34,210 nucleotides of DNA from Jimgerdemannia flammicorona. Taxonomy: Eukaryota. Below, piece after piece: positions 383 to 31,198 of this stretch. The notes below the pieces were generated by a model. It ran no database searches, was not told where the DNA came from, and worked only from the letters and a program-made list of their open reading frames with translations. The position numbers and the translations under genes are program-made. Position 1 is the first letter of the stretch, and each line of letters starts with the position of its first letter. The stretch lies in contig RBNJ01000283.1 of NCBI GenBank assembly GCA_003990765.1, positions 1 to 34,210 of the forward strand, in the 5' to 3' direction.

Positions 383-1936
383 TGTAATGGTGATCCCAGA
401 ATGATGACATCAGTATAGGAGACAGCCTTTCCTTACAAGCCACCAGATCAGAGCACAAGAAGATCATATGGCATATGAGATGAGTAATGATGACCAACTG
501 TGAGTCATTGTGACTACAGTACAAGCATCCTGAAGAATATAAAAGAAGGATCAAGAAACTGTAGTAGCAGTAACCAATAAGAATCACCAATCTCAAAATA
601 GCTCAAAGACTTACCACAAATAAAATGCCTACTGCCCACTAAACCTCAAGATCAAGGAATCACTAAGATATCTCAGTTGAGGAAAGGATATTCCAAGACA
701 TCAGAAGAGCCATAGGGACCTGCTCAAGAAAGACTCCTAGTATCAACCTGGGTACTGCAGACCCTTATCACTTTATTCTCTACCACTGTGAGATGGAAAC
801 AAGGATCACCATTGCTACCGAATACCTCCAAATATGACAGAAGTATGAAATAGAAAACCTCCTCTGCCAGGAGTTCCCACAGGCCAGCACTCAAGAGCTA
901 CAAGATGCTATTCCCATAGATATATGTGAAACGAGAACAGCTAAGAAGATCCATCAGATCTTCAGGCATGCACCATGGTTGATTCCCAACTTGGAGTATG
1001 TTAGAGTCTCAGACTTCAGAGACCTGTCATCATGCCATATCAATGTATTAGAAGCCAGGGTAGCTATAGAAGCCCAGTCCACTATCACCCTCAACAGCAA
1101 AGAAGTAGAAGACTTCTGATATCCTATCCTTCAGGACAATCTAGATCAATTCCTACAAGGATTGATCTCAGTATTCCAAGGCCCAAGCATCCAGATTAGA
1201 TCTCCCCAAGATCCCACATTTGTTCTCTATTTTGTAGAAGAGAACCTCATAGACTAGAGAGCTCCAGATCTCCTTGTTCCTGATTTCTCTGCTACAGCCA
1301 AATGTGATGATGTCATTGGCAATGACATTATCTCATGCGACTTTGATATATACGAGACATGCAATCTGCATAATGAATTCATGGATCTCATCTCCTTTAG
1401 TGATGATGATGATGATGATGATGATAAAGCCCCTATGATTCTGAACTTTCTGCTCTAAGTTCTTTATTATACTGGATAATGCCAGCACTGGTATTCTCAT
1501 GTAACACTGGATAATACCAGCACCGGTATTCTGAGGTGATGCGAAATTGTTCCAGTACCAGTATTTTTGATATGACACTAGATAATACCAGCATCCTGAA
1601 CCTGTATAACCATCAGTACCAACTCTGGAACTTAGTAGTTTTAGTTATTAGAATTTATATTTAGCTTTATATCTTAACAATCATTGAATTATATTTTGTA
1701 TAAATACTCCTCTTATTTCCTCTAAAATAAAGTTAGTTCTAGTTTCATTTACACACACTTTCTTGCAAGCAATCTAAGAGATAACAAGACAGTTAAAGAT
1801 AAGAAGTTTGAGGACTATAAGACCTTGGGAAGACACTCCAATAAGAACTTGCTTATAACAAACTTGAGTTAGTCTAAGAGATATACCTTGAAGAGAATCT
1901 GGTATATTTGAAGGACTCAGTGACCACTATGTGATA
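383..1936 (+). repeat. Element A 5' LTR (1554 bp)
   Basis: Colinear with 7208-8775; TGTAA start; end TGTGATA (decayed CA); TATAAATA near 1699 and AATAAA near 1726. Confidence 0.93.
625..1458 (+). pseudogene. LTR-embedded accessory ORF, 5' LTR copy (~277 aa, poly-Asp tail)
   Basis: Same frame from ATG 625 to TAA 1458, interrupted by point stops; counterpart of 7450-8298. Confidence 0.65.
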
Positions 1937-1939
1937 ACT

Positions 1940-1975: not shown

Positions 1976-2056
1976 TACTTTCAAGCTGAAAAACAAACAA
2001 CCCCCACAACAACTATTCTGACTACAAGAGTCACCCCTGCAAGAATTCAAGATAAG

Positions 2057-7197: not shown

Positions 7198-7207
7198 AGG
7201 AGGAAGA
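7198..7207 (+). promoter_or_regulatory. Polypurine tract of element A
   Basis: AGGAGGAAGA directly before the 3' LTR TG. Confidence 0.85.
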
Positions 7208-7449
7208 TGTAACAGTGACCCCAGAATGATAACATCAGCACAGGAGGCAGCCTTTCCTTGCAAGCCACCAGATTAGAGCACAAGAAAATCATATGGCATA
7301 TGAGATGAGCAATGATGACCAACTGTGAGTCATTGTGACTACAGTACAAGCATCCTGAAGAATATAAAAGAAGGATTAAGAAACTGCAGTAGCAGCAACC
7401 AACAAGAACCACCAATCCCAAAATAGCTCAAAGACTTACTACAAATGAA

Positions 7450-8230
7450 ATGCCTGCTGCCCATCAAACCTCAAGGTCAAGGAATCACCAAGGTATCTCA
7501 GTCGAGAAAAGGATGTTCCAAGACATCAGAAGAGCCATGGGGACCTGCTCAAGAAGGACTCCTAGTATCAACCTGAGTACTGTAGACCCTTATTACTTCA
7601 TTCTCTACTGCTGTGAGATGGAAACAAGGATCACCATTGCTACTGAATGCCTCCAAATGTGGTAGGAGTATGAAATAGGAAACCTTCTCTGCTAGGAGTT
7701 CCCACAGGCCAGCACTCAAGAGCTACAAGATACCACTCCCATGGATATATGTGAAATGAGGACAGCTAAGAAGATACATCAGATCTTCAGGCATGCACCA
7801 TGGTCAATCCCCAACTTGGAGTATATTAGAGTCTCAGACTTCAGAGACCTATCATCCCACTATATCAATGTACTAGAAGCCAGGGTGGTTACAGAAGCCC
7901 AGTCCACTATCACCCTCAACAGTGAAGAAGTAGAAGACTTCTGGCATCTTATCTTTCAGAATAACTCATATCAATTCCTGCAAGAATTGATCTCAGTATT
8001 CTAAGGCCCAAGCATCCAGGTTAGACCTCCCCAAGACCCCACATTTGTTCTCTATTTTGTGGAAGAGAACCTCATAGACTGGAGAGCTCCAGATCTCCTT
8101 GTTCCCGATTTCCTCACCACAGCTGAACATGATGACATCATCAGCAATGATATCATCCCATGCAACTTTGACATATATGAGATATATAACTTGCATGACA
8201 AATTCGCGGATCTCATCTCCTTCAGTGATA

Positions 8231-8268
<38 letters not shown>

Positions 8269-8298
8269 GCCCCTATGATTCTGAACTTTCTGCTCTAA
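7450..8298 (+). pseudogene. LTR-embedded accessory ORF, 3' LTR copy (~282 aa)
   Basis: ORF fragments 7450, 7741 and 8059 are in one frame, separated by TAG/TAA at positions that read CAG/CAA in the other LTR. Confidence 0.7.
8226..8266 (+). repeat. (GAT)n microsatellite encoding poly-Asp; shorter copy at ~1401-1425
   Basis: Direct reading; the two ORF copies differ by 15 nt, preserving frame. Confidence 0.9.
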
Positions 8299-8779
8299 GT
8301 TCTTTATTACACTGGATAATGCCAGCACTGGTATTCTCATATAACACTAGATAATACTAGTACCAGTATTCTGAGGTGATGTGAAATTGTTCCAGTACTG
8401 GCATTTTGATATGACACTAGATAATACCAGTATTCTGAACCTGTACAACCATCAGTACTGACCCTAGAATTTAGTAGTTTTAGTTATTGGAATTTATATT
8501 TAGCTTTATATCTTAGTAACCATTGAATTATATTTTGTATAAATACCCCTCTTATTTCCTCTGAAATAAAGTCAGTTCTGGTTTCATTTATACACACTTC
8601 CTTGCAAGCAATCTAAGAGATAACAAGACAGTTAAAGATAAGAAGTTTAAGGACTATAAGACCTTGGAAAGGCACTCCAATAAGAACTTGCTTATAACAA
8701 ACTTGAGTTAGTCTAAGAGATATACCTTAAAGAGAATCTGATATATTTGAAGGACTCAGCAACCACTATGTAACATTAT

Positions 8780-9049: not shown

Positions 9050-9419
9050 TCTTTCTTCTAAATAGGTTATTTTTGATACAAAAATACCTATTTAAATTCT
9101 TATATTGCAATGTTTATATATTTGTTTCCCTTATATAGACTTGTTTATAATATTGTATCCAAGTAATTGTTAGAATATTTTTTGAGATCTCAAAAGTCTT
9201 AATTCAGATAGCAGTTCAGACAAAAGTCAGGTGACAATATCTTTAAAAATCAGATAGCAGCATCTGATAAGTAACAGCATCTTCAAAGGTCAGGCAGTAT
9301 TCTTTACTTGGGTAGCATTTTTCACTTGGGCAATATTCTTTACTCAGATAGTATTCTTTAAATAATTAACTTGAGTGATGGTTTGTATATGACATCTTTT
9401 AATTCTTTATAGTGGTCCT

Positions 9420-10300
9420 TTATATAGTAGTTTGTTTAGTATTTTGGCAATTAATTCTTATAATGTTGTCTCTTAAACTAAGGAGCAACCTGGCTATTAA
9501 CTTAATGATATAGTCCTTTATAGAGTATCTATAGTTCAACACCAATAGTTTACAGAAATGAGGCTGATAACTAGAATAAGTAATTAATAGCAGATAATAT
9601 AAAAATGAATACAATACATGATGGGTAGTATTTGTATGTCACAGGATAACTTCTAGGCTTATTGAGTGCAGGTAATAGATCATATCTTCAAAAGTCAGAT
9701 AGCAGCAAATCATATATTACTAGACAGATCATATCTTCAAAAGCAGCAGATGACAGTAGTCTGTTTGATATAGTGGTTTATTTAGTATTTTTTAGTGATT
9801 AATTCTTGTAATATTATCTCTCAAACTAAGGAGTAACCTAGCTATTAACTCAATAATGTGGTCTTTTGCAGAGTATCTATTATTCAATACTGACAATTTA
9901 TAGAAATGAGGCTAATAACTAGAACAAGCAATTAATAGTAGATGGTGCAGACAAATAATATCTTCAAAAATCAGATAGCAGTGACAGTCCATACAGTAGT
10001 TTATTTATCTTTTTTCAAAATTGGATGACAGTGGCAGTCTATATAGTAGTTTATTTATCTTTTTTCAAAATTAGGTAGCAGTGGTGATCTGTACAGCAGT
10101 CTGTTCAGTATGGTGGTTTGTTTAGCATTTTTAGCAATTAATTCTTATAATATTATCCCTCAAACTAAAGAGTAATCCAGCTATTAACTCAATGATATGG
10201 TCTTTTGCAGAGTATCTATTGTTCAATATCAATAGTTTACAGAAATGAGACTGATAACCAGAATAAGCAATTAACGGTAGATGGTATAGACAAATACTAT
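9420..10300. repeat. Three copies of a ~180-bp unit with ~345-bp period inside element C
   Basis: GTTTGTTTAGTATTTT...AAACTAAGGAG...AGAAATGAGGCTGATAAC recurs at ~9424, ~9771 and ~10110; short ATCTTCAAAAGTCAGATAGCAG-like repeats lie between. Confidence 0.85.
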
Positions 10301-10405
10301 ATGTAATATAATAGTCTGTATAGTAGTTTAGCAGTCTGGCAGTTGTTCATTTTTTAGCTTAAAAGTGAGAATTCATCTTGAATTACCAGCCAATGGGTAC
10401 TAAGT

Positions 10406-10476
10406 TGTAATATAGCAGATATATAACTATATAAGTATAGCAGATTCTGAAATTCATATGAAGGAGGAAAGAGTAT
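10406..10476 (-). repeat. Element C 5' LTR, first part (continues at 17180-17525)
   Basis: Matches 237-307; adjacent to the minus-strand PBS at ~10369-10402. Confidence 0.88.
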
Positions 10477-10946
10477 TGTGATGGTATAGCCAGATTCAGA
10501 AGAAGGAAATAGAGAACAGATACTTAATCACACTCAGTTCCAAAGTAGTATAGCCACATAGTTAGCAGTTCCCGATTTCACCATTTGCTAAATATTTCGC
10601 AAAGTACAAGATCAAGCTTTTTGATATAGTATAGTATTTTGCAACTGGCAAAATATTTCGCAAAGTGTTAAATGACTCATAACTTAGCTATATAACTCAG
10701 TAACTATCTCATAGCTAGCAAACTTGTACATATAAATAACCCAGTATCTTTGAGTGAATAAACCTCAGATCGAAATAGTTCAAAGCAAAGAGATAGCAAA
10801 GGAACTAGTAAGCCTGTGGACAGATATACTTCGAACTCACCCACTCTCCCCTGCAACTCAAGAGACTCTGCAAGAGTCAGAACAGTTAAGTTTACAAGAT
10901 ACAGATATCTGACGTACTTTCAAGAGTAAGTGTCTGCTATGTTACA
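10477..10946 (+). repeat. Element B 5' LTR (470 bp)
   Basis: Direct repeat of 16710-17175. Confidence 0.93.
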
Positions 10947-11060
10947 ACTTAGTGTCCATTGGCTGGTAATTCAAGATGAATCCCTCACTTTCAAGCTGAA
11001 CAATGAACAACCACCACTACCCAAACAACCATACAAACTGAACCCCAATACCCAGACAAG

Positions 11061-14000: not shown

Positions 14001-15036
14001 ACAGTACTACAGCACTTTGGACTTATACTCAGGATTCCACCAAATTGGACTCACAGACATGGTAAGTGAAAAGTCAGCTTTCATCACCCTAGATGGAACC
14101 TATGTCTACCTATGAATACTATTTGGAATGTGCAATGCACCAGCAAGTTTTCAGTGAATGATGAACAAAATCTTCCGCTATAACATGGGAAGATGGATGA
14201 TGGTCTATATTGACAATGTAATCATCTACAGCAAGACACCTGAGGAACACCTGTAGCACATCTGGCAGATAATGGAAAGACTGAGAAAGCATGGCCTATA
14301 CATTAAGCCCAAAAAATGCAAATTCGCAGAAATCGAGATCTTCTATCTTGGCCACATCATCAACTGAGATGGAACATACACAGACCCCCTCAAAATACAA
14401 GCAGTGGCAGCATACCTAAGACCCACCACTGTTACAGAAGCCCAAGCCTTCATGGGACTTGCCTCCTATTATTACAGATTTATTAGAGGATTTTCTAATA
14501 TTGCAGGACTAATCTATGAACTTAACAAGAAGGATACCAAGTTCCAGTGGACTGGTAGACAACAAAAAGCATTTGATGAACTCAAGGTCAGACTGACCCA
14601 GGCACCCATCCTCAGAAGACCTGACTGGACTCAAGAATTCATCCTACAGACTGATGCAAGTGCATAAGAACTAGAAGCAGTCCTAGCTCAAAAGAAAGAT
14701 AAAGTGGAGTATGTCATCACATACCTCAGCCACAGAACCCAAGGAGGTGAAAAAGAATATGAATCCTACAAGTTGGAATGCCTTGCAGTCATCTGGGCTA
14801 TAGAAAAGTTTCACTACTACTTGGCTGGAAGATACTTCACCATTCAAATGGACCACTCAGCTCTCATCTGGTTACTGACAACTGGACAACCCAAAGGAAT
14901 CTATGCCAGATGGATAATGAAGTTGCAAGCTTATGATGTAACCATTGTACACCACTCTGGAAGAACCAATGCCAATGCAGATGCCCTCTCACGGATACTC
15001 CGAACTACCTCCAATCAATAAATCAATCATAAATAA
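11061..15036 (+). pseudogene. Element B ORF1: gag-PR-dUTPase-RT-RNase H
   Basis: CYSCGEEGHYSYEC, AIIDMGVG, dUTPase 13116-13532, SPWSSPVVL, RLCVDYRKLN, LDLYSGFHQI, QTDAS; small frameshifting deletion near 13766. Confidence 0.92.
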
Positions 15037-16221
15037 GGAGCTCTACTACAGAATTATCACATACCTGGAACAGCGAAAGATGCCCCAACATCTGGAAGAA
15101 TGGACACAAACAATTATCAACAGAACATAGAAACAATTCAAAACTGACAGAGAAATACTGAAGAAAGGAAAACTACTAGTTATATCAGAATACAAGAAGG
15201 AGTAAGTGATGAAATCAGTACATAAACTTGGCCATCTAGGAGGAATGAATACATATAACAAGGCAAGAAGAACAATATGGTGACCAGGGATAGAGGAAGA
15301 TATTAGACAATTCATTAAGACTTGTGACAAATGCTAGAAACAGAAATAAGACCAACAAAATCAAGCCCCAGGATCAGCACACATAGAACTAATACCATTC
15401 GCCCATATTGCAATGGATGTAATCAGCCCTCTACCCTTGACTTTGACTGGCAACCGATACATCATCACCATCATAGACCTTTTTACAAAATGGATAGAAG
15501 CAGGACCCCTTATGGAAGTCAATATACAGTCAATTGCCAATTTCTTCTACAAAGACATCACCTACCAGTTCAAGACCCCAACCAAGTAACTACAGATAGA
15601 GGAATGAAATTTGTGAACCAGTTCTTCGAAGTTCTCTACAAGAAGTACAAGATCCAGCATATTCGGATCACAGCATATCACCCTCAAGGAAACAGATAAG
15701 TAGAAAGGACTAATAAAACCCTCAAGAATGTTATTACTAAGATCTGCAATAACTACGAGAACTTGAATCACTATCTGCCAATAGCATTATCTGCTCTCTG
15801 GAATATCCGATCACAAAGTATCCATTTTACTCCTCGAGAAATGCTGTTCAGAGAAGAATGTTCTCAGGGAACTCTATCATCCAATGGAGATGCTGTATGG
15901 AAACATGTGGACATAGAAATATGGAGACTACACCAAATCAGGAAGAAGACTGAGGATTACATAACTAAGGTGCAGATACTACAATAGAAGAATGCAGAAA
16001 AGACCCACAAACCCTTAGAGATTATCAAGATAGAAGACAAAGTCCTAGTGTATTGGAATATGGTAGAAGCTTCATGGTCACGAAAACTGGAGCCCAAGTG
16101 GAAAAGACCTTACCTTGTGCAAGATATAAAAGGGACCACCTTTTGGCTATGAAAACCCTTAGGCACAATAATCTCCACCACCATTCACTGAAACCAACTC
16201 AAGAAATATCATGGCCAGTAA
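15029..16221 (+). pseudogene. Element B integrase ORF
   Basis: HKLGHLG...CDKC, MDVISP, TDRGMKF, YHPQGN, LEPKWKRPY; +1 frame relative to RNase H. Confidence 0.88.
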
Positions 16222-16672
16222 CAAAAGTACTACAATGGCACTCAAGATCACTAGTGCTGCCCAAAGAGCCATTGAGAGACAATGGTATACCACTGAGCCT
16301 CTGACCATAGAGGAGTCTTATGACAGTATCCAAAGCATTGTGCAGACTCATCTCTCTCAGATCTCATACTTCAAGGCCTATCAGTATTGAAACGAATTTC
16401 AAAAGTACTTCAAACTTGGCCAAGTACTCAACCAAGACCCAGAAATGACCAAAGAAAATTGGATCACAGAATGCCAGCTCTCCTATTTCCAGATTACCAT
16501 TACTAAGAGAATCTACAAGCTATTCTGAGAGGATGAACCAGCACTAGCCCACCTATAAGGAGTGACTCCCTCAGACTTTGACTGAGTCAGGCAACACTAT
16601 TGGGAAATAGTAATGCAACAAATCACACAATACAAGACCATATAGACCATTGAAGCCTGGGAGTTTGAATAG
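16211..16672 (+). pseudogene. Element B ORF3, uncharacterised ~153 aa accessory protein
   Basis: 462 nt ATG to TAG, same length and frame as D 24976-25437. Confidence 0.75.
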
Positions 16673-16709
16673 ATACTTTAAGGATGAGATCATCTATTCA
16701 GGAGGAAGT

Positions 16710-17175
16710 TGTGATGGTATAGCCAGATTCGGAAGAAGGAAATAGAGAACAGATACTTGATCGTACCTAGTCCCAAAGTAGTATAGCCACATAGTTAGCA
16801 GTCCCCAATTTCGCCATTTGCTAAATATTTCACAAAGTGTAAGATCGAGCTTCTCGATATAGTATAGCATTTTGCAACTGGCAAAATATTTTGCAAAGTG
16901 TTAAATGACTCATAACTTAGCTATATAATCCAGTAACCATCTCATAGCTAGCAAACTTATATAAATAACTCAGTATCTTTGAGTGAATAAACCTCAGATC
17001 AAAATAGTTCAAAGCAAAGAGATAGCAAAGGAACTAGTAAGCCTGTGGGCAGATATACTTCAAACTCACCCACCCTCCCCTACAACTCAAGAGACTCTGC
17101 AAGAGTCAAAACAGTCAAGTTTACAAGATACAGAAATCCGACATACTTTCAAGAGTAAGCATCCACTATATTACA
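16710..17175 (+). repeat. Element B 3' LTR (466 bp)
   Basis: Direct repeat of 10477-10946. Confidence 0.93.
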
Positions 17176-17179
17176 GTAT

Positions 17180-17525
17180 ATAAAGAAGACTTGTTTTTGG
17201 AATTGAACTGACTCAATCTGAGGTTTATTCACTCTAGATACTAGGGATATTTATACAAGTTTGTATGCTAATTCTGCTACTAAATATATAGCTAAGTAAT
17301 AAGTCTTTTCATGTGAAATTCCCATCTATATCTCAGATAGAATCTTATGTAAAATCCTATCTGAATTTCATGAAAGTAACAAGAGTTTCACTGATAATGT
17401 TTTAGATATAGTATCTATAGTAAAGGTAATTTCTACACTATAATAAATCAAGAAATCAGATTCAGGTACTATGAACAAATATCTATTCCCCTGATTCTTA
17501 TTTCTATTTTATACTATATATCACA
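17180..17525 (-). repeat. Element C 5' LTR, second part
   Basis: Matches 308-382 joined to 8780-9049; ends TCACA followed by TSD ATAG. Confidence 0.88.
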
Positions 17526-18213: not shown

Positions 18214-19594
18214 TTAGCAGGTAGAGATACTCATGTGGACGCTGAATACAAATAATAATAATAATAATAATAATACTCATGTCAAAAACCGCGCCAGTTT
18301 AACGCAATCGATATGTAGCATATGAGGAGAAATAAAATGATACGTACTTCCAGTATAGGCGATGGGCGGCAATACTAGTGAAGGGAACGACAGAGTTTGA
18401 ACAGGTAGAATCCTCATCGATGACGCAGTTCACTGTATAAAATAGGGAATTGGTGAATCGGTCATAACACATTGACGACAAATTATACGTCTTGTCGGTC
18501 TACCATACATACCAACAGTACCCGCAGAATCCTCGATCCAATACTCGCTGGCGTGGTGTTTGTACCCGAAAGACTCCGGAGGCAAGTGGGGGACGATGTC
18601 GTTCCGGTTGACAGTGCGGTAGAACGGAAGCTTGAGGCTATCGACATAGGTGGAGAAAGTAGGATCGCCGACGCGGGGTTCACCTTCATATCATCGGGAC
18701 AAATCATAATGTCGGTTAGCATCCGTCTCGCAATTTTTGGAATTAGCCAAAAGGTAGTTGTAAAGACCTACCATAAGTGTAGATCACCATATTCTTGCTG
18801 GTATAACCCGCGTTCTGGTAGAAATCCAAGGCCTGGAGGACGGTGAGAGCGCCACCCAAACTATGACCAACCATGTAAAGAGTGTAGCCGGGATGGTTGT
18901 TTATCTGCTCGACAACGGTAGGGTAAACGATACTGCGAGCATCCTGGAAGGACTCGAGGAAGCCTGAGAGATTTTGTGTGAAATTAGTGAGTTCGTGTGA
19001 TTGTATTTACAGATGTCAACGTATTGTCAATGTAAAATATTTCAGAATTATATTTCACTGACCAGTGTGAACATTGGCTCCAGGTACAGGGGGGTACTTA
19101 GAGTGAAAGAAATGAGAATCATGAATGAAGTTGTTGATGTTCGTCGAACCGCGGTACGCGACATAGATAGCTTTCTTGCCGTCGTTGCGAGCGATGAAGC
19201 CAATGGTGGCGGTCGCCGAGATGGAGAAAGTCTTAACGACGATGGTGTTTGGGAAGTTTCTGCAATAGGAATTGCAGGTAAGCTGACCACCGGCGCTGCC
19301 AACGCTGCAGTAAGCGGTGGAGGCGAGACGAGCGAAGTCTTGGAGAGTGCTGACCACGGCGCTTGTGACGGCGACACCGTTATTAGAGGATGAGAGGCGG
19401 GAAACAGCAACAGTGGAAGGGTAGCCGGTAACGGTCCAATTGGTTGCGAGGCCGTGCTGTTGCGGGGTCCCTGCTGGCAGCGTTTGGGTAGAGTGTTCAC
19501 CAGTCGTGGCGCGCCTTTCGAGTGGAGCCGCATTAACAAGCTGCACAGCAACGAGAACTGCAATTGCTTTAAGGACGAGGAACTTGAGAGTCAT
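18214..19594 (-). CDS. Secreted class 3 triacylglycerol lipase (Rhizopus/Rhizomucor-like), 335 aa; exons 19594-19063, 18963-18772, 18683-18513, 18432-18348, 18241-18214
   Basis: Signal peptide MTLKFLVLKAIAVLVAVQLVNA and APLERR; VAYRGS, VHTGF, GHSLGG (Ser), YGEPRVG, NDIVPHLP (Asp), CSNS..AAHRLYW (His); four GT-AG introns of 80-106 bp splice to a 1008-nt open frame. Confidence 0.93.
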
Positions 19595-21949
19595 TATCGG
19601 AGTCGGAGGAATGATGTTCAGGGAGTTGGAAAAGGGTAGCTACCGCTGGACCTACGAAGCTTCGAGTACATTGTGGCACGTCTATTTATCTATCTTGCAT
19701 ATTGTGGCTATGTACGTGGTCTATGTTGGTTGAGGATTTATTTGGATTTGTGAAATGCATGCAAACCACTTCGCTGCGAACTTCCAATTCACATTTTGTT
19801 GCACCTGGATCTACGGTGTTTCCCCCGCAAATTGCTCAACTTCACATTTAATTCATGCTGAGTAACAATGGCTGTGGCCGATTGACCGATATGGGACACC
19901 TTTGCCACAAAGAATCTGTATCGCCGTTGCTGTTGTGGTAGCTCTTAATCTATGTGGACACTTTCATGTCAGTATTCTTTATTAATAAACGTAGCAAATT
20001 CTCCTCTTATAGCAAATGCTCGTTCGTAATTGCCCAAAATAAAAATGCAGTAGGATATAATTATTACTAACTCTAGCTTGTACGATTAAAATTTATAGCT
20101 GTGGTAGCACGTAATCCCACGTTGGTTATGTGAATGAGCACGAGACATGAATAGGCTGTCGACGATCCTCGCTATGTAATACGGATTTGAAAGCAGAAAT
20201 GTCCTTCACATGCCTCTCTTCCGAACTGACAAAAAAGCAAAACAGTAATTAAGCATGCAGTAGCCAAGAGGACAAAACCAAAGCGAAAGGGCGCGGGATT
20301 GAAAGAAGTAACAAAGCATTTGTGGGAACTTCATTCATCAGCTGCCATGTTCAGTATTTCACATGGTATTCCATTATTCAAATGCTCGAAAAAAATCAAA
20401 GAGAGAAATGGTTGCTCTACACTCGATGGACATCGATTGAGACTAGGCCGGTTAAAGTTCGTGAGTAGAATGAATAACGACCCGCACTAGTAATATTAGT
20501 TGGTTCGCACCAGTAAAATTAGCGTAACTCATATGCTTGCCAAGAAAATTCGTATTTCTGCGATTTGAAGGGGATTGACCGTGAATAAGTTGAGAGCAAG
20601 ACTACTTCTTGGACCAATAGAAAAATAAATTTTGCAGGCTACAATTTTTCATCCATGCCCAGAAGAGAATTCAATGATAATGCTGCAGTAATAGCCACAA
20701 CTTCTTATTCAATCAAAGGAAACCGTGCTATATTGAGGATGTTTAGACCTTTTTTGGGAAAAAAAAAAAAAAAAAAAAGTGGCTGGTCGAGAAGCCGTAA
20801 CGACTCTCCAAGTCCAACATGAGTTATTTGCGATCCATCAATTATTATAAAAAATCTATGCTTCAAGGAGATGAATTAAATTCGTCGACCCTATCTATAT
20901 TCGAGTCTTTGGAGGTTCTTCGTCTAAGCAAAGATACTGCGGAGTTGAGCAGTATAAGCACAGTACGAATTGACATGGAAGTGTTATCCGTTCAAGCACT
21001 ATTATTCACTCTCAACTTAAAAATACCCCATTTTCGCTACATACTGCGGAACATTCGAGATATCCTCTGTTCATCATCTTCTCCGCGTCCAGCTCATCAT
21101 ATTCCTTCACTTCTCCTCCGGCGGCGTACGACATTACCAGAGTCACGTACGACGGCCAGTTCGATGGTGGCGTCGATGTGCGTTGGTGTGCGGCAGAATT
21201 TACCCTTGGTGCAAGTTCGTGCCGCATTTGAGATCGATGTTAGTGGGAGGCGTGAGTCTTCTCGTCGGTTTCGAGTGCAGCGTCGCGGTGGATCCGTTGA
21301 TGCAAGTTTGCTATGTAAGTTCTTGGCATTTTTTCTATTACGTTAGCAGTCGAAAGGTTTGATGGGGAACTAGCGATGCGCTTCTTATTACTCGGTGGGG
21401 TTGCCGCATCACGCCATCTTTAAATTTGTAATGGGAAGTGAGGAGACGGAAGGACAGAAGAAACAATAGGGGGGGTTTTTTTTTTTTACGTCTAAGAATG
21501 AGTGTCCCTACTACTCAAGACATGATTTCGTGTTTCATTCGCAATCTTGCTATCTCGAGACGTGAGCGTATTACAAGGTTCAATGGCACACATTGGCTGC
21601 GTGCTATATCAAGCAACACAGAAAATATCGTAGAACACAACAATTAAAGCCTTATAACTGTCTTCTGCATCTGCGCGTTTCGTCTGGTCAAAAAAGTACA
21701 TCTGCTTGACGAACCATTTGTCCTGCTCACCGGTTCTGTAGCAGGGACTTTGAATCAGCCAACTAATTATATGAGGCGAAGTTTATTAAAAAGTAATTAC
21801 CTTATGGCCTATCTGGATTGGAAAATATTTATCTCATGACTCGCACGAAAATAGAAAAGATTTTTTTTTTTGTGTTCCATATGATTGTGCTGGAGCCAGT
21901 CATTATTATTATTTAGGCAATTTTGTTAGTACCGATATTATCATTTAGT

Positions 21950-24462
21950 TCAATTTATATTTAAATTTGCAAGTTGATTATAATTTTATAATTTTATTTT
22001 TATAATTAAATTTTATAAGTAATTTATATAAAAAAATTATAATATAGTATTATATATATTTTACAATTATGAACTAAAAGATAATATAATAATAATAATA
22101 AATTATATTATCTATTTCTCTCATTATAATATAATTAAATTAAATTATCTGCTTGACTTATATTCTGAGGTTAGACCAATGTTGATATATTGTTCATAGC
22201 TTTTCTTCTATATTTGTCTGTTCTTAGTAAGCTTTTTGGTATTCTTTTCAGATTAGGTCTTTTTGTACCTTGATAGTTATATAAGCTTTCTTTAGAGTAT
22301 AGTTTCTCAGCACACTCTTCTTCTAGTTTATTAGAATTAGTAAAAAGTATATCAACATTGTTGTGAGCTTTTTCTATCTTATAAATAATAGTGATTTTCT
22401 AATCTTGTAAAATAAGGATCTAGCAGATAAAAATTTCAACAGTTGAATAGCTATTTGAGAATAGTATAGTTAGTTATCAAAGTAAACCTTTTTCTATTAA
22501 GAGAGAATTTCTAAGTATTCAGAAGATACTGAAATATTGTAGAATATTTAAGAAAGTGTAAGAGAAGACTAGAGAAAAGATATGAAAATATACTATAACT
22601 AAGATATGACTAAGAAATTGTTATAGTATTATTCTATTATTACTTACTAAATAATTATAACTATTCTAAAAAAAACCTGTAAATTAGCTATATCTATTTA
22701 ATTATCTAACTGGTTTTTGAAAGAAAGATATGAAAGGTATATCTGTTCTGAGTTTTTAGTTTCAATAATGAAGTTTTTGCAACAGAACTGATAGATAGAA
22801 CAAATGATTCACTCAGCAGATATATTTTGACTAGACAAAGATGCAGATATAAAAACAATTTTTCTCTTAATATAGCCACATATAACTATTAAGTCTTATA
22901 ATATATATAAGTCTCAAAATAGTATGTAAGATTATAAAATTATATCTTAAGTAAGAACAAAGTAGATTGGCTAGAGATATCTACTATAAAAATTTCTTCT
23001 ATATAGAGTTTGAGAAGGAGTTATCTCATAAGTATCAAATTGAAAAACTATCTACAATGAGAAAAGTAGAAATTAAATCTCTCTTACTTATTTAGCTAGT
23101 CCTTACTAACTAACTCCACTTATCTGATAGTTGTAAATAATTATTTATATTTGAGCAAATATCTATATGAGGAAGACTATCTCAAATATAATATATTGGT
23201 CAGTTTACTAAGATCTCAATAAGAAATATATTAGAAAAAGATAGAAGAGTGTGAAATTGCAAAGTAATATCTATATATTTGAAGTAAAATTATAGTATAA
23301 GTAAAGCAAAGTAAAAGTAAAAAAAGGTTAAACATTTATCTAAAATATATATAGCTAAGATTTTCAGATAGATAAGATATAATAGGTACTAAAGTCTGTC
23401 CCAGACTTTACAAGCTTTATAGAGGATCTTGAGGAGTTAGTTTCTGCTATTCTGAAAGTATTGGTGTATTTTATTTATCTTAAATATATATATATACATA
23501 GTTTTTCATCTATCTAAGACCTATATGTGAGATATGTAAAACATAGTAATAAAAGAATATCTCTCACTCTCATAGAGTTCCTTAGTTTAAAAAACTTGAT
23601 ATGTGAGCCCAGAAAAGAAAAACCCCAAAGAGAAAAAAGAAAAAAAGCTGAGTAGAAAGTGTAACTAGAAGAAAAAAATGAGTTGAGATAGAGTGAGAAA
23701 CTAACTCCTCATGGTCCTCTATAAAGCTTATAAAGTCTAAGATAGACTTCAGTACTTATAGTGCCTTATTTATCTAGGACTAAGTCTTACTTTATTCTGG
23801 ACTATTTTAGAGTTAGTTGTTTATAGACTAAAGGTGAGTAGAGTACCAAAGAAGTATCTTGCAGATACCCTAGCCTTTGTACCAGAGAACTATATAGACT
23901 AAAGAGAAAGCTTAAGCTTCTTCTGAAAGAGTAGATACCAAATAGAAAAGATGGTAATAGTGCTTGAAGATCATCTAAGAGCTCCAGTTACCACTCTTGA
24001 GGACCTTATTGATGGCATGCCCTCTTCTAGGGCCTTAGTAGAAGACACTTAGATAGAGTGTAGCAGTAAATAAGATCAATACTCACTACTGCTATATATT
24101 CAGAAAACCAGTTATGAAGGTAATTAGAGATAAGGTTGTAATATAGAGAGTGCATACTGATGAAAAGATAATTGCTATCAGTAGGAGGGTAGAGCAGCTC
24201 TATCTCACAAGTCCAACAGAAAGTCTAGTAGATGAAGTACAGATCTCTATCCTCTAAGAGGATAGAGATAGAGTGAGAGATCTTGATAGCAATGTTGAGA
24301 ATATATTTCTTGGTTATGTCTACTGTCAGAACTATCTTGGTTGACTAATCATCATGGTAGTCTAGCATCTGGTAAAATCACTGACTATCTTCTAAGATAT
24401 ACATAAGGTCAGTAGAGTATGAATCTTCTTACTATATAAGATCCAAGATTTGAGATTATTAT
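21950..24462. mobile_element. Highly degenerate repeat-derived DNA, family unassigned
   Basis: AT-rich, nearly no CpG, TAG/CTA-rich, no long ORF; interrupted by element D and continues at 31199. Confidence 0.45.
23365..23776. mobile_element. MITE-like element with ~80-bp terminal inverted repeats
   Basis: 23366-23445 aligns without gaps to the reverse complement of 23696-23775 (shared core AAGCTTTATAGAGGA...GAGGAGTTAGTTTCT); TSD not resolved. Confidence 0.65.
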
Positions 24463-24938
24463 TGTAACATAGCGGATGCTTACTCTTGAAAGTATGTCGG
24501 ATTTCTGTATCTTAAAAACTTGACCGTTTTGACTCTCACAGAGTCTCTTGAAGTTGTAGGGGAGGGTGAGTGAGTTTGAAGTATATCTGCCTGCAGGCTT
24601 ACTAGTTCCTTTGCTATCTCTTTGCTTTGAACTATTTTGATCTGAGGTTTATTCACTCGAAGATACTGAGTTATTTATACAAGTTTGCTAGCTATGAGAG
24701 AGTGGCTAAGTAATAAATGAGTCATTTGGACTTTGTCGAAACATTTGAACAATGTCTAAATGCTATACTAAATTGGGGTATTCGATTTGGATAATGTCTA
24801 AAATTTAGACAATGTCTAAGAATTTAGACAATGTCGAAATCGAGGACTGCTAACTATAAGGCTATACTACTTTGGGACTGGGTGTGATCGAGTGTCTATT
24901 CCCTATTTCCTTCTTCCAAATTTGGCTGTACCATCACA
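24463..24938 (-). repeat. Element D 3' LTR
   Basis: Direct repeat of 30719-31194. Confidence 0.93.
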
Positions 24939-24975
24939 ACTTCCTCCTGAATGGATGGTCTTATCCCTGAGGCAT

Positions 24976-25437
24976 CTATTCAAACTCTCAGGCTTCAATG
25001 GTCTGTATGGTCTTGTACTGTGCAATTTACTGTATGACTGTTTCCCAATGATGTCTCTTCACTTTCTCAAAGTCAGTGGGGGTTACTCCTCTCAGGTGGT
25101 CTATCGCTGCTTCATCTTCTTGGAATAACTTGTAGATCCTTTTGGCAATAGTGATCTGTGAGTGGGAGAGTTAACACTCAGCAATCCAGTCCTCTTTGGT
25201 CTTTGCTGGATCTTGATTGAGTACCTGTCCAAGCTTGAAGTACTCTTGGAATTCTGACCGATATTGATAGGCTCTAAAGTGCGAGATCTGAGAGAGATGA
25301 GTCTGCATGATACTCTGAATATCCTCATAGTATGCCTCTATGGTCGGAGGCTCAGTGGTGTGCCATTGTCTTTCGATGGCTCTTTGGGCAGCACTAGTGA
25401 TCTTGAGTGCCATCACAGTACTTTTGTTACTGACCAT
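24976..25437 (-). pseudogene. Element D ORF3, uncharacterised ~153 aa accessory protein
   Basis: MVSNKSTVMALKITSAAQ...IAKRIYKLFQEDEAAIDHLRGVTPTDF...EFE*; three point stops, no frameshift. Confidence 0.75.
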
Positions 25438-26620
25438 GATATTTCTTGAGTCGGTTTCGATAAATGGTGGTGGGGATTATTGTGCCTGAGGGTTTTTGTA
25501 GCCAAAAGGTAGTCCCTTTTATATCTTGCACAAGGTAAGGTCCTTCCCACTTGGGCTCCAGTTTTCATGACCATGAAGCTTCTACCATGTTCTGATATAC
25601 CAGGACTTTGTTTCCTATCTTGATAATCTCCAAGGGCTTGTGGATTTTTTTCACATTCCTCCATTGTAGTGTCTGTGTCTTGGTTATGTAATCCTCAGCC
25701 TTCTTCCTGATTTGGTATAGTCTCTGTATTTCCATGTCCACATGTTTCCATACAGCGTTTCCATTAGATGATAGGGTTCCTTGAGAACATTCTTCTCTGA
25801 ACAGCATTTCTTGAGGGGTAAAGTGGGTACTTTGTGATCAGATGTCCTGGAGAGCAGATAATGCTATTGGCAGATAGTAATCCCAGTTCTCGTAGTTATC
25901 GCAGATCTTGGCAATAATATTCTTGAGGGTTTTGTTGGTCCTTTTTACTTATCTGTTTCCTTGGGGGTGATAGGCTGTGGTCCGAATGTACTGGATCTTG
26001 TACTTCTTATAGAGAACCTCAAAGAGCTGGTTCACAAATTCTGTTCCTCTATCTGTAGTCACTTGTGTTGGGGTCTTGAACTGGCAGATGATTTCCTTGT
26101 GGAAGAAATTGGTGATTGACTGTGCATTGGCTTCCTTGAGAGGTCCTGCTTCTATCTACTTTGTAAAAAGGTCTACGATGACAATGATGTATTAGTTACC
26201 AGTCAGGGTCAAGGGTAGAGGGCTGATTACATCCATTGCTATATGGGCAAATGGTACTGTTTCTATATGTGCTGATCCTGGGGCTTGATTCTGTTGGTCT
26301 TGTTTCTGTTTCTGGCATTTGTCACATGTCTTGACAAATTGTCTGATATCTTCCTCCATCCCTGGCCACCATATTGTTCTTCTTGCCTTGTTGTATGTAT
26401 TCATTTCTCCTAGATGGCCAAGTTCATGTACTGATTTCATTGCTTGCTCCTTCTTGTGTTCTGGTATGATCAGTAGTTTTCCTTTCTTCAGTGTTTCTCC
26501 ATCAGTTTCAAATTATTTCCATGTCCTGTTGATAATCATTTGTGTCCATTCTTCCAGATATTGGGGCATCTTTTGCTGTTCCAGATATGTGATAATTCCA
26601 TAGTAGAGCTCCTTATTCAT
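25427..26620 (-). pseudogene. Element D integrase ORF (397 codons) with its own ATG
   Basis: MNKELYYGIITYLEQ..., HELGHLG, CDKC, MDVISP, TDRGTEF, LEPKWEGPY; 1194 nt in one frame. Confidence 0.9.
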
Positions 26621-29600
26621 AATTGATTTGTTGGTTGGAGGTGGTTCGAGGTATCCATGAGAGAGTATCTGCATTGGAATTTGTTCTTTCAGGGCAGTGT
26701 ATGATGGTTACATCATAGGCTTGTAACTTCATTATCTATCTGGCATAGATTCCCTTGGGTTGTCCAGTTGTCAGTAGCCAGGTGAGAGCTAAGTGGTCCA
26801 TCTAGATGATGAAGTGTCTTCCAGCCAGATAGTAGTGGAACTTTTCCACAGCCCAGATAACTGCAAGACATTCCAACTTATAGGACTCATATTCTTTTTC
26901 AGCCTCTTGGGTTCTGTGGCTAAGATATGTAATGACATACTCTTTTTTGTCTTCTTTTTGAGCTAGGACTGCTCCTAGTCCCTGTGCACTTGCATCTATC
27001 TGAAGGATAAATTCTTAGATCCAATTGAGTTATCTGAGGATGGGTGTCTAGGTTAGTCTGATCTTGAGTTCATCAAATGCTTTTTGTTGTATACCAGTCT
27101 ACTAGAACTTGGTATCCTTTTTGTTGAGTTCGTAGATTGGGCTTGCAATGTTGGAGAATCTTCTAATGAATCTGCAATAGTAGGAGGCAAGTCTCATGAA
27201 GGCTTGGGCTTCTGTAATGATAGTGGGCCTTGGATATGCTGCTACCGCTTATATTTTGAGGGGGTCCATGTGTGTTCCATCTCAATTGATAATATGGCCA
27301 GATAGGAGATCTCGATTTCCGCAAACTTGCACTTCTTGGGTTTGATATAAAGGCCATGTTGTCTTAGTCTCTCCATTATCTGCTGTATGTGCTACAGATG
27401 TTCCTCAGCCATCTTACTGTAGATGATTACATCATTGACATAGACCATCATCCATCTTCCCATATCATAGCAGAAGATTTTGTTCATCATTCGCTGAAAG
27501 CTTACTGGTGCATTGCACATTCTGAATGGCATTCATAGGTAGATGTAGGTTCCATCTGGGGTGATGAAGGCTGACTTTTCACTTGCCACTTCTGTGAGTC
27601 TGATTTGGTGGAATTCTGAGTATAAGTCCAAGGTGCTGTAGTACTGTGCTTCATCTCCCAGTATTATAAGAATGTCGCTGATGAGTGGCAGTGGTTGGCG
27701 ATCCTTCTTGGTGACTGCATTGAGCTTTCTGTAGTCAACACAGAGCCTTGGGACAAATTCTCCAGGTTTGCTTCCTTTTTTCGGAGCTAGTACAACTGGT
27801 GAAGACCAGGGGCTACTGGCTTCTTTGATGATGTTGGCTTCTTTCATCTGCTTGATTTCTTCTCTGAGCCATTCTCGGTAGGCTGGCGGGACAGGTCTTG
27901 CTTTCTGGTAAATTAGTTCAGTGTCTCCGGTATCTACCTTGTAATAGTAGTGTAGGGTCTTTTCCTTGATATCCTTGAAATCCGTGGCAAGGACATCCTC
28001 GAATTTGTGGAGTATTTTCTTGAGTTCTTCCTTGAGTGGGAATTCATCTCCAATGGTATAACTGTACTTGCTCATGTTTTTCTCCTTCTTATGCTCGAGT
28101 TCAGTGATCTTGGTGCTGGTGAATACTCCTCTTTCTGTGGATCCGAATCCTTTCTTTCCTCTTTTCATTTCCTCCAGATTCTTGACTTCTATGATCCTTG
28201 GCTGTATGATTGGGAAGATCAACATCTGTACCAATCAGTCCTTCTTCTTGACTGGGAATGGAATTGTAGGATTGTGGTTCCTAGCAATGAGTAGAATTTC
28301 TCCAGTATAGTCTGAATCAATAACTTCTCCTTCGATTGTGATTTCGCTTCTAGCTAGGCTGCTTCTTGTCTTGAGAATCCCAACATGATCCTTTGGGATG
28401 GTCATCTCTAGTCCAGTTGTGAGTAGGGTGGTTGTCTGGGGTTCCAGTACAGTTTCTTCTACTGTAGTGATGTCCATTCTGGCTGTATTTTCTGACTTGT
28501 ATTCTGGCAAGACTGCATCAGGGTGGATCTTTCAAATCTTGACCTTGATTTCTTCTTCATCATCACTATCCTCCAGGAGGGCTGGTGGTTCATCATCTTC
28601 CTCCTTCTCTTCCTCCCTGATCTGTTTTTCAAGAGCTTTCTACCTCCTTTTCTGGTAGATCTTCTTGGTTCCAATGGTGCACTGGTAGCAATCATTGACA
28701 TGCTCCATACAGTATATCTTGATTCCATGAGAACAGACTCCTTGTGGGGTATAGCCTTCGGCGATCTTCTTGCACCATTCTTCTTCACTCATCCATCCAA
28801 CTTTCTTCTTCTTTGGAGTAGTTACCATATAAGCTTCCTCTTACTCACTCTCTTCTTCCTCCATATCGAGCAGAACTCCTTTGTTGATATTGATGGGAAT
28901 TTGTATCTTCTGTCCCCGGTAGGTGATTTGCATCTTCTGGGCATTGAGATCGATTACTGCCTTGGCTTTGTGAAGCCATTGATTGCCGATGAGGATATCA
29001 TAGTTAGTGGCATTGGTTACGATTACATCTACTGGAATTGTTGCTCCTCTAATCTTGATGGGAACATCTCAGATTTTTCTCAGAGGTGTGGCTCTTGTAC
29101 CATCAGCTGTGATGAATACTAGCTTAGTTGCTTCTTCTACATCCCAACCTAGGTAGTCTGCTGCCTTCTTACTGAGGAGACATCCTCCTGCTCCCATATC
29201 AATGATGGCTTCAAAGGTTCTATCTTCGATTTGGCATATTGCATAAGCAGAGGTTTTGCGATTGTCCTCACTTTCTTCTCCTGAGTCCTCTTGAACATTA
29301 TTGGCCTCAGTTATCTTCCATCCTTGTTCCTTGGTTGTTTCGGCAAGTCCAAATCTCATTTGCTGTCTGAATGTTGGAATTTCTGCAAGCTGACCAAAGG
29401 TTGCATTGACCTTTTGTTGACTGAGATCCTTGAAGATATCATACTTGAAGGTCTTGGTCTTGCGAAGCTTCTTTTCTTTTTCTCCTTCACTGGCTGGAGT
29501 AGTTCCTCAGATGATATCTTGAACTGCTTGCTCCAGCTTGATATCTTGGTCCATCTCTTCAGCTTGGCTTTCTGTGTCAGTTTCCATCCACTTTTCCACT

Positions 29601-30604
29601 GGGTTCTTCTTGAGTCTTCCTGGTGGTCTCTTGTAGGGTTCTTTGTGAGCATCCTTCTTGGTGGTCTGAGCAGGATAGGCCTCCCATTCCTCTTCATCAG
29701 ATTCTCTGATTTCTTCAAAGGTGATTGTATTGGCCTACTCCTTGTTTTGTATGGTATTGCTTAGTTGAGTCTTGCATTTAGTTTCACTTATACATTCATA
29801 GGAGTAGTGGCCTTCTTCTCTGCAGCTGTAGCAGGTACCTTTCTTCTTGTCTGAGGTGGCGGCAAACTTCTAAACAGGGCAGCGATCTCTTCCTTGGATT
29901 TCCTTTACCATATCTCCCAGGTGGGCAGTCATTTCAGCAAACCTTTTGGCAAGTTCCTCCATAGGGTCACTGTTCTTTTGCTGCTTTGTAGCTTTTGGCT
30001 GAGGTGTGTTTCGATTGATCATTGTGGTAGGGATCACACTGGTTGCCTTGGGTGGCTCGATTCTGATTCCTGTAACTCTTTCCATTATATGGTCTTGTGG
30101 GTATCTGGCTATCCAGTATCGCTGAGCATAGGTGACCTTCTATGGCAGATCCAGAATCACTGGTGATGAGTGGATGGCCATGGCTATTTCTGGATGGACT
30201 CCTTTCATGAAGGTTGCTTCGGCTATTTGATCTCGGATAGCAGTAGCATAATCTGCAAGAATTATCTGATATTGAATTCTGGTATAGAATGTGTTTGGGT
30301 CCTCACTCATTCCTTGGTATGTTGTGTTGAGCTGATCCTTCAGGGCTTGCTTGATCTCGTCTGTGTAATATGTATTTCGGAGCCAGGTCTTCTGTACTGT
30401 CAGTATAGCATCAGCATCATTTCCTGTATGAGTTGCGGCTGTGAATGCTGCTCTGGCAGGGCCTCATAGACTGAAGGGCATGAGGGCTACTTGCTGTGCT
30501 GCTGTCAGAGTCCTTACAGCAGTATACTGCTCGAAATCATCAATGAAGGTGATGATTGATTCATCTGAGGTATATCCATAGAATACTGGCAGTCTCATAT
30601 CCAT
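26613..30604 (-). pseudogene. Element D ORF1: gag-PR-dUTPase (28133-28549)-RT-RNase H
   Basis: One frame from ATG 30604 through RT; 1-nt deletion near 27300; motifs as in B. Confidence 0.92.
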
Positions 30605-30718
30605 CTTGTCTGGGTATTGGGGCTCAGTTTGTATGGTTGTTCAGATAGTAGTGGTTGTTTGTTGTTTAGCTTGAAAGTGAGGGATTCATCTTGAATCACC
30701 AGCCAATGGGCACCAAGT

Positions 30719-31194
30719 TATAACATAGTGGACGCTTACTCTTGAAAGTACGTCGGATTTCTATATCTTGAAAACTTGACCATTCTGACTCTCGCAGAGT
30801 CTCTTGAAGTTGTAGGGGAGGGTGGGTAAGTTCAAAGTATATCTGCCTGCAGGCTTACTAGTTCCTTTGCTATCTCTTTGCTTTGAACTATTTCAATCTG
30901 AGGTTTATTTACTCAAAGATACTGGGTTATTTATACAAGTTTACTAGCTATGAGAGGGTGGCTAAGTAATAAATGAGTCATTTGGACTTTGTCGAAACAT
31001 TTGGACAATGTCTAAATGCTATACTAAATCGGGATATTTGATTTGGATAATGTCTAAAATTTAGACAATGTTTAAGAATTTAGACAATGTCGAAATCGAG
31101 GACTGCTAACTATAAGGCTATACTACTTTGGGACTGGGTGCGATCAAGTGTCTATTCCCTATTTCCTTCTTCCAAATTTGGCTGTACCATCACA
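30719..31194 (-). repeat. Element D 5' LTR
   Basis: Direct repeat of 24463-24938. Confidence 0.93.
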
Positions 31195-31198
31195 TTAT

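Follow-up and report, generated by a model that had tools for sequence, protein, structure and literature searches.

Accessory genes in LTR retroelements

Accessory genes divide 'complex' retroviruses from simple retroelements. Some of the retroviral accessory genes, MMTV sag and lentiviral nef, are located in or across U3. The acidic transactivator Tas/Bel1 of foamy viruses, which are complex retroviruses, is encoded at the 3′ end, next to or in U3. Targeting in Ty3 is a property of the integrase itself. To our knowledge, very few accessory genes are known from Ty3/gypsy elements outside env.

For fungal Gypsy elements, an 'add. ORF' is drawn in a figure of Novikova et al. (2010; PMC2864245). 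The passage on dUTPase-bearing elements of bdelloids describes diverse non-env ORF3 types (PMC5408684), and that on rice Retrosat2 gives similarities above 60% for ORF1 and of about 10% for ORF0 (PMC3485330). Cer1, a Ty3/gypsy element of C. elegans, encodes CERV, a non-env protein regulating the element's own RNA; according to the passage on this protein, it is made from a spliced mRNA and needs phosphorylation (PMC10309623).

The window, i.e. the whole stretch of 34,210 nt analysed here, contains three Ty3/gypsy elements, A, B and D. B and D carry a third gene, ORF3, between integrase and polypurine tract (PPT), while A has an ORF in U3 of its LTRs. The main reading combines three statements: ORF3 is a genuine gene, the A ORF is homologous to it, and both hold the same position. 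Jointly, they are given a probability of roughly 0.75. A preliminary description, made from the sequence alone, had proposed a conserved, uncharacterised accessory family carried by two gypsy families. Selection on ORF3, intact copies, the profile match of the A ORF and the equivalent slot all agree with this proposal.

Like the fungal add. ORF, the bdelloid ORF3s and Retrosat2 ORF0, the gene is an extra one beside gag/pol, domainless, lineage-specific and evolving faster than pol, as far as the passages on these ORFs go; the comparison is one by description, not by sequence. The bdelloid ORF3s named are enzymes or env-like, unlike this gene (PMC5408684), and Retrosat2 ORF0 is located upstream of gag, whereas ORF3 lies downstream of pol (PMC3485330). 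In the passages on the add. ORF, the bdelloid ORF3s and ORF0, no gene appears that precedes the PPT in one family and resides in U3 of a sister family. Like sag and nef, the gene sits at the 3′ end of the genomic RNA, behind all structural and enzymatic genes. In A, where it lies wholly inside U3 (in B and D not at all), the gene is duplicated along with the LTR. It differs from sag and nef in the non-vertebrate host and in an element without env. No likeness in sequence or fold was detected (PDB sequences, Foldseek and VIA-align, with models of pLDDT 54-60), and the superantigen function of sag and the trafficking functions of nef are not expected for ORF3. As with CERV, a novel non-env protein of a Ty3/gypsy element is concerned, and the passage on CERV indicates that such elements can carry Rev-like regulators (PMC10309623); an HMMER search of a protein library gave no likeness between the two. 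Tas/Bel1 is resembled in composition only, as a small 3′-encoded, modular protein with a putative binding domain and an acidic hydrophobic tail.

Extra ORFs in LTR retrotransposons are already known. Full-text searches of the literature yielded neither a description of this protein family nor a gene straddling the PPT boundary between sister gypsy families, the scope excluding the supplement of PMC2864245, a table of which may cover such ORFs; that supplement aside, the family and its PPT/U3 shift appear to be undescribed in the full texts. What emerges is a compact, strongly constrained third gene without known fold, with four subfamilies and an apparent exchange of modules between lineages.

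Elements in the window

Self-comparison of the window revealed three Ty3/gypsy LTR retrotransposons, each with a 4-bp target duplication:

383-8775, plus strand: element A, with LTRs at 383-1936 and 7208-8775 (1.55 kb)
10477-17175, plus strand: element B, with LTRs at 10477-10946 and 16710-17175 (about 470 nt)
24463-31194, minus strand: element D, with LTRs at 24463-24938 and 30719-31194 (476 nt)

All LTRs have the termini TGT...ACA, and the target site duplications (TSDs) of A, B and D are TTAT, GTAT and TTAT, respectively. Identity within the LTR pairs amounts to 90-94%. Downstream of the 5′ LTR comes the primer-binding site (PBS), TGGTGCCCATTGG, and the 3′ LTR is preceded by the polypurine tract, CAGGAGGAAG. 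Pfam searches on A and D identified RVP/Asp_protease, dUTPase, RVT_1, RT_RNaseH, Integrase_H2C2 and rve in Ty3/gypsy order. Paired LTRs, TSD, PBS, PPT and the order protease-RT-RNase H-integrase are those of Ty3/gypsy elements (Metaviridae). The dUTPase is placed between protease and reverse transcriptase in pol of the ORF3-bearing lineage. No chromo domain was matched in the pol frames of A and D (Pfam, E ≤ 0.001). A class-3 lipase gene is located between B and D on the minus strand (about 18.4-19.7 kb), and the elements were also met in soil-metagenome contigs.

Judging from pol, A and B/D are sister families, with a DNA identity of about 70-75% in pol and a protein identity of 66% over 278 aa at the integrase C-terminus. 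The preliminary description had spoken of two divergent gypsy families. This is right for the accessory protein, with an identity of about 14-25% between A and B/D, but not for the families themselves, which are not very divergent in view of the integrase value.

ORF3 as a third gene

ORF3 and its surroundings comprise the following features:

24976..25437, minus strand: ORF3 of D, 153 codons and the terminal stop, interrupted by stops at codons 89, 137 and 150
16211..16672, plus strand: ORF3 of B, 153 codons and the terminal stop, interrupted by stops at codons 60, 106, 116, 125 and 145
25427..25429, minus strand: stop codon of pol in D, lying 8 nt within ORF3
24939..24975, minus strand: spacer with the polypurine tract CAGGAGGAAG, from the ORF3 stop to the 3′ LTR of D
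16673-16709, plus strand: equivalent PPT spacer of B

A 462-nt ORF3 of equal length between integrase and PPT had been noted previously for B and D, with stops largely at different codons. Indeed, the two copies differ by zero indels, and none of the three internal stops in D coincides with any of the five in B. An HMM built from database homologues only recovered both copies in a six-frame search (E 4e-65 for D, 4e-66 for B). The ATG of ORF3 overlaps the pol stop (ATGGTCAGTAA), with an overlap of 11 nt in B and D and in a different frame. Its context, A(-3)/G(+4), is a strong one and is conserved in 3/3 DNA copies. From the end of ORF3 to the 3′ LTR, the distance is 37-38 nt, the PPT lying within.

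Intact natural homologues served as reference for the coding capacity of ORF3. In a word-indexed search of 5.8 billion proteins, 7/7 candidates proved homologous at E ≤ 6.5e-33, including one intact 153-aa protein with 76% identity to ORF3 of D. A metagenome scan returned a sole locus, the contig L001 (6479 nt), which holds a near-intact element of the order gag(CCHC)-PR-dUTPase-RT-RNase H-integrase, followed by an intact ORF3 (5795-6256) overlapping pol by 44 nt. The Pfam order was matched up to Integrase_H2C2, with rve absent from the matches at 1e-5. Downstream of this ORF3, the same polypurine tract and LTR start as in the window elements were found. The expectation that homologues lie beside gypsy integrases elsewhere is thereby borne out for L001. 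Scanning IMG/VR with the ORF3 and A alignments gave 0 loci.

The length of 462 nt is kept indel-free in D, B and L001. In frame, dN/dS was 0.114 for D-B and 0.08 for B-L001 (Nei-Gojobori), versus 0.9-1.8 in the other two frames of the same nucleotides; in the D-L001 comparison, synonymous sites were saturated. Third codon positions hold 52/95 of the differences between D and B. A dN/dS check had been suggested beforehand, and its outcome is a ratio far below 1, with no frameshifts among the copies. Soil-metagenome contigs from four public runs (DNA or of undefined kind) have a sense codon at the position of D stop codon 89 in two of the four runs. The window copy mostly shows A/T where the other contigs have G/C, and among the indels listed, all are located in the LTR and none in ORF3. 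Judged by its codon substitution pattern, ORF3 is under purifying selection and is a genuine third gene of a dUTPase-bearing Ty3/gypsy lineage.

The protein and its relatives

The ORF3 product is predicted to be a soluble, all-helical protein of about 153 aa. A transmembrane helix had been denied in the preliminary description, and the maximal 19-residue Kyte-Doolittle means of 0.19-0.82, calculated for 5 proteins from all subfamilies, lie below the value of about 1.6 usual for a membrane helix. This profile is not that of an env-like ORF3 of the errantivirus or Athila type. AlphaFold models are all-helical with a mean pLDDT of 60 (11 sequences) and 54 (23 sequences). Since these models are poor (pLDDT 54-60), fold comparison carries little weight: with them as queries, Foldseek gave 0 matches against the PDB at E ≤ 0.001, and a wide VIA-align search reached a best Z of 5.6 with generic helical hairpins. 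The ESM Atlas returned only unnamed or unrelated clusters for the ORF3 protein P0001 and the A-type protein P0009, the Atlas model of P0009 having a pLDDT of 0.35. A PDB sequence search with the 23-sequence profile found spectrin as best match (E 0.05).

Pfam searches with the ORF3 and A proteins gave no hit at E ≤ 10, chromodomain included, which agrees with the earlier statement that the protein is not a chromodomain. On the 23 aligned members, no Pfam family was matched in more than 2/23 (best E 0.016), and no DNA-binding or RNA-binding domain was recognised by Pfam. A hit to an already described retrotransposon ORF or to a Pfam family was not obtained. When 1.84 billion representatives were searched in full with the ORF3 profile (HMMER), 6 proteins reached E ≤ 0.001. 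Among these, P0015 and P0016, with lengths of 165 and 154 aa and E-values of 1.2e-5 and 3.2e-4, are distant relatives with the same core motif; they sit on contigs of 0.9-2.3 kb, their retroelement origin being assumed. Altogether, four subfamilies of the accessory protein are recognisable. A likeness to helical proteins of Glomeromycotina, mentioned in the preliminary description, received no support, the relatives being metagenomic where a source was shown, bar one cockroach protein. This protein, P0014, is a tandem-repeat protein of 455 aa; its match (E 1.7e-6) arises from 6 repeated stretches and, since these do not count as independent of one another, is probably spurious.

Relationship of the A ORF to ORF3

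The ORF of family A is present in both LTRs:

7450..8298, plus strand: A accessory ORF in U3 of the 3′ LTR, 282 codons, 3 internal stops (A-family HMM, E 1e-119)
625..1458, plus strand: A accessory ORF, copy of the 5′ LTR, 277 codons, 5 internal stops
7672..7875, plus strand: core shared with ORF3 (profile positions 68-134), from six-frame hmmsearch and hhalign; copy of the 5′ LTR at 844-1050

Between the two LTR copies, there is no frameshift and no stop in common. The A peptides quoted in the preliminary description were located in both LTRs in a single frame. Of 195 candidates, 5 matched the A ORF at E ≤ 1.6e-30, among them intact proteins 247 and 271 aa long, and intact A-type ORFs elsewhere comprise 215-271 aa. 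By these relatives, the A ORF is itself a real protein family. The N-terminal part of about 140 aa corresponds to ORF3 and is followed by a family-A-specific extension of about 130 aa with an acidic tail. An HMM scan of B and D detected no trace of the C-terminal half specific to A, nor did an HMM reveal a remnant of ORF3 between pol and PPT of A (6880-7207).

The two genes had been reported to share a protein core despite no obvious DNA similarity, and blastn gave no in-register match between them. BLASTP of ORF3 of D against the A frame yielded 23 bits (E 0.003) in one comparison, which is weak alone. A first hhalign run gave a probability of 28% (E 6e-4). After addition of the two distant ORF3 relatives, the HHalign comparison of A and B/D proposed earlier turned out positive, with a probability of 80% and an E-value of 1.4e-5 over 85 columns, obtained from shallow profiles (Neff 1.5-2.3). 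A rerun scored 38.2, versus 13.0 +/- 2.3 (maximum 20.3) when the columns of the A alignment were shuffled 100 times; reversed alignments scored about 16.

Three profiles from disjoint sets of database proteins were applied in a six-frame scan of the window (about 68,000 translated residues, stops read as X). The ORF3 profile, which contained no window or A sequences, retrieved B, D and then both A LTR copies (i-E 2.3e-4 and 1.2e-3), with noise from 2.5. Using the A profile, ORF3 of D was found at 0.0094 (noise 1.5), but that of B only at 3.7. When the profile was restricted to the two distant families, it matched D, B and both A copies, and nothing besides. The matches of all three profiles stand in one register. 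A MAFFT alignment of the four subfamilies displays the common motif [IT]A.[KR][IV][YH]..F......[AS][IL]..[LF]......D[FW], in which F105 is invariant across 23 sequences and D122 across 17. Towards the N-terminus, the alignment extends to DSIRSIV / QDIRRAM and HF..Y. A further A-type member of 247 aa, visibly the most divergent A-type protein, shows about 32% identity to P0001.

Thus read, the profile data make homology between the A LTR ORF and ORF3 very probable. The opposite assumption, that two unrelated genes were captured independently and match in the motif by chance or convergence, would fit the identity of only 14-25%, the missing DNA similarity and an A protein longer by 130 aa; furthermore, the E-values of single tests range between 1e-5 and 1e-2, and the structure models are too poor for a fold comparison. 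It would, however, have to explain why three disjoint profiles choose the same segment and register, as the only extra matches in 68,000 residues, and why hhalign scores 38 where 100 shuffles reach at most 20.3. Both genes moreover occupy the same slot, from pol to a shared TATA box, in sister elements, and independent capture is held to be improbable.

Gene position and LTR boundary

The layout of the LTRs is defined by these features:

8536..8545, plus strand: LTR TATA box TGTATAAATA of A, also at 1697-1706 in the 5′ LTR
16958-16967, plus strand: same TATA box in B, with 1 mismatch
24672-24681 and 30928-30937, minus strand: same TATA box in D
8565 and 1726 (A), 16986 and 10757 (B), 24648 and 30904 (D): AATAAA, 27-29 nt after the TATA box
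8299..8775, plus strand: tail of the A LTR, which runs colinear with the complete B/D LTR of about 470 nt (blastn, alignment)
about 7190-7207, plus strand: polypurine tract of A, upstream of the A ORF
7363..7368, plus strand: second TATAAA in the A LTR, preceding the ATG of the ORF by 87 nt; copy of the 5′ LTR at 538

The tail of the A LTR and the B/D LTR have in common the TATA box, AATAAA, a further conserved block and the terminus. As this tail is colinear with the whole B/D LTR, the A ORF is located upstream of the promoter, in U3. The PPT and the first 20 nt or so of the LTR can also be aligned (A 7167-7225 with B 16666-16727, 71% identity). Pol of A stops at 6877-6879, 570 nt upstream of the A ORF. 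The order in B and D is pol, ORF3, PPT and the LTR with U3 start, TATA, R and U5, while that in A is pol, a 330-nt spacer, PPT and the LTR with U3 start, ORF, TATA, R and U5. According to this order, the slot of the gene relative to pol and promoter is kept, and the LTR boundary has moved across the gene. In both arrangements, pol is followed by the accessory gene, TATA and AATAAA, and the gene therefore belongs to the 3′ part of the genomic RNA. The A gene has been copied into the 5′ LTR as well, upstream of the promoter. The second TATAAA could serve the A LTR as its own, candidate promoter for the gene.

With the gene ahead of the PPT in B and D but within U3 in the sister family A, the elements constitute a clean natural experiment. 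It documents how a gene of a retroelement can come to be duplicated with the LTR, and it warns annotators that real genes can hide in long LTRs.

Evolution and decay

Between B and D, the integrase end shows a dS of 0.27 and an omega of 0.34, ORF3 a dS of 0.96 and an omega of 0.11. The identity of the two elements falls from about 0.9 to about 0.76 near position 16276, just within ORF3. The simplest reading would be an exchange of the ORF3 module between lineages by recombination. This signal, together with identities of 14-25% in the accessory protein vs 66% in the integrase, shows that the accessory gene has evolved much faster than pol and has a separate history.

Differences within the LTR pairs comprise 214 transitions vs 4 transversions. 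The CpG observed/expected ratio is 0.08-0.23 in the elements vs 1.12 in the neighbouring lipase gene. All four copies of the accessory gene in the window are dead, killed by transition mutations; since each of them carries stops, nothing functional is encoded at this locus now.

Possible functions

The C-terminal 30 residues have a net charge of -2 in the B/D type, of -11 and -5 in two further subfamilies and of -7 to -9 in the A type. In every subfamily, W, F and L abound in the acidic tail, whose last 30 residues include 7-11 aromatic or aliphatic ones. The N-terminus of the A type is arginine-rich, the first 60 residues of P0009 having a net charge of +8. A small regulator of nuclear type, encoded beside U3 and built from a helical binding domain plus an acidic-hydrophobic tail, may fit the appearance of an LTR transactivator. 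This mechanism, in which a helical binding domain is joined to an acidic, aromatic-rich effector tail, is preferred, if tentatively. Most likely, the protein regulates its own element; it would be produced from a subgenomic or LTR-initiated mRNA and would act in trans on the element's own expression. The B/D tail is short (net -2 per 30 residues), so the argument for an activation domain is a matter of composition alone. Any function found, be it transactivation, RNA export, anti-silencing or targeting, would add a class of regulators to the biology of LTR retrotransposons and offer a handle on how the elements cope with a methylating, mutating host.

A gene 3′ of pol normally needs a subgenomic, often spliced mRNA, and the unspliced RNA must then leave the nucleus. 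A post-transcriptional regulator of the Rev/CERV type, made from spliced RNA, nuclear, binding the unspliced genomic RNA and promoting its export or use, would suit this situation. The arginine-rich start of the A type (net +8 in 60 residues) and its leucine-rich end LNFLL point in the same direction, and the passage on Cer1 CERV provides a precedent among Ty3/gypsy elements (PMC10309623). However, Pfam recognises no RNA-binding domain, the arginine-rich stretch is missing from the B/D type (net +3 or less), and HMMER and PDB searches gave no sequence likeness to known proteins; such a regulator is considered rather doubtful. Somewhat less credible again is an antagonist of host silencing, directed against small-RNA or DNA-methylation pathways. 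Evolution far faster than that of pol (14-25% vs 66% identity between families) and the apparent swapping between lineages are expected of a factor interacting with the host, and the host has evidently attacked the elements (transitions to transversions 214:4, CpG depletion). Within the subfamily, though, selection is strongly purifying (omega about 0.1) and not diversifying, no likeness to known suppressors was seen in Pfam or among PDB sequences, and the case is circumstantial throughout. That ORF3 is a C-terminal extension of the integrase, translated by ribosomal frameshifting, agrees with its overlap with the pol end in another frame (11 nt in B and D, 44 nt in L001). It is nevertheless very unlikely, given an ATG in A(-3)/G(+4) context kept in 3/3 DNA copies, database proteins of all subfamilies starting at the same alignment position, and an A gene 570 nt past the pol stop, beyond stops in all frames and the PPT.

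The remaining alternatives concern the choice of the insertion site. As an integration cofactor, the protein might tether the preintegration complex to TATA-box or TBP-bound DNA, which is thought improbable. The integrases lack a chromodomain, and 3/3 insertions are within 6 nt of TATAAA or TTTATA vs 5.7% of non-element positions, a comparison of n=3 with a motif picked post hoc in AT-rich DNA. Moreover, the integrase of Ty3 does the targeting itself, and ORF3 is without any link to integrase. Activation of the LTR, as in the preferred transactivator, and insertion into TATA boxes could also be combined in one factor directed at promoters. By recognising the TATA region of the family's LTRs, or the TBP complex on it, such a factor would both activate the LTR and steer new copies to TATA boxes, the ones in resident LTRs among them. 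With the A gene in U3 behind the second TATA, each LTR, solo LTRs included, would form a self-contained gene supplying the factor in trans to the whole family. This idea ranks slightly below the simple cofactor in probability. In favour of the cofactor, element A itself interrupts the TATA box of a B/D-type LTR in inverted orientation, as a paralogue of the empty site at 17222-17285 shows.

Insertion sites

The three Ty3/gypsy elements of the window, A and the members B and D of its sister family, are each bounded by a 4-bp target-site duplication (TSD). The duplications and the sequences next to the elements are located as follows.

379-382 / 8776-8779, TSD flanking A
10473-10476 / 17176-17179, TSD flanking B
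24459-24462 / 31195-31198, TSD flanking D
9419-10300, tandem array between A and B, three units of ~340 nt, 76-86% identical
10342-10419, inverted fragment of a B/D-type element (LTR end plus leader region), adjoining the tandem array
17222-17285, empty-site paralogue of the A target, adjoining B
~18400-19700, minus strand, host class-3 lipase gene (Pfam Lipase_3, E 2e-12 and 2e-6, two frames)

Both flanks of A are matched beside B, 303-382 by 17175-17254 and 8776-9045 by 17251-17521, and the overlap of the two matches is the 4-bp TSD. The target of A was the TATA box in an inverted LTR of the B/D type. The inverted B/D-type fragment at 10342-10419 shows that B, too, lies within an older inverted relative. 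TATAAA or TTTATA lies within 6 nt of the insertion point in all three insertions, compared with 5.7% of non-element positions in this post hoc test (n = 3).

Sequence decay

The elements decay almost exclusively by transitions. Paired LTRs of the three elements differ by 151 transitions versus 3 transversions, 36 versus 1, and 27 versus 0, respectively. The CpG observed/expected ratio is 0.08-0.23 within the elements (383-8775, 10477-17175 and 24463-31194), whereas the adjoining lipase gene, which one or more frame changes or introns split, has a normal CpG content (1.12 in 18300-19800). Transition bias and CpG depletion together form the signature of repeat-directed deamination of the cytosine-methylation type. 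Because of this decay pattern, LTR divergence is unusable as a clock for these elements.

Coding regions

ORF3 is a 462-nt accessory gene 3' of the integrase in B and D. When 15576-16826 (B) is compared with 24822-26072 (D), dS rises from 0.27 at the end of the integrase to 0.96 within ORF3, and identity drops from ~0.9 to ~0.76 at ~16276, just inside ORF3, a jump that looks recombination-like. Six repeats of P0014, a cockroach tandem-repeat protein (455 aa, public insect genome record), match the ORF3 core motif (E 1.7e-6 summed), with a resemblance discernible by eye. This match is probably due to chance, inflated by the repeats.

A dUTPase domain is located between protease and RT in pol of A, B, D and the related, near-intact element of metagenome contig L001 (Pfam E 1e-20 to 3e-28); in D, for example, reading from 31195 places it at frame residues 895-1020. 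PMC2864245 and PMC5408684 report the protease-dUTPase-RT layout for some gypsy elements, fungal and bdelloid.
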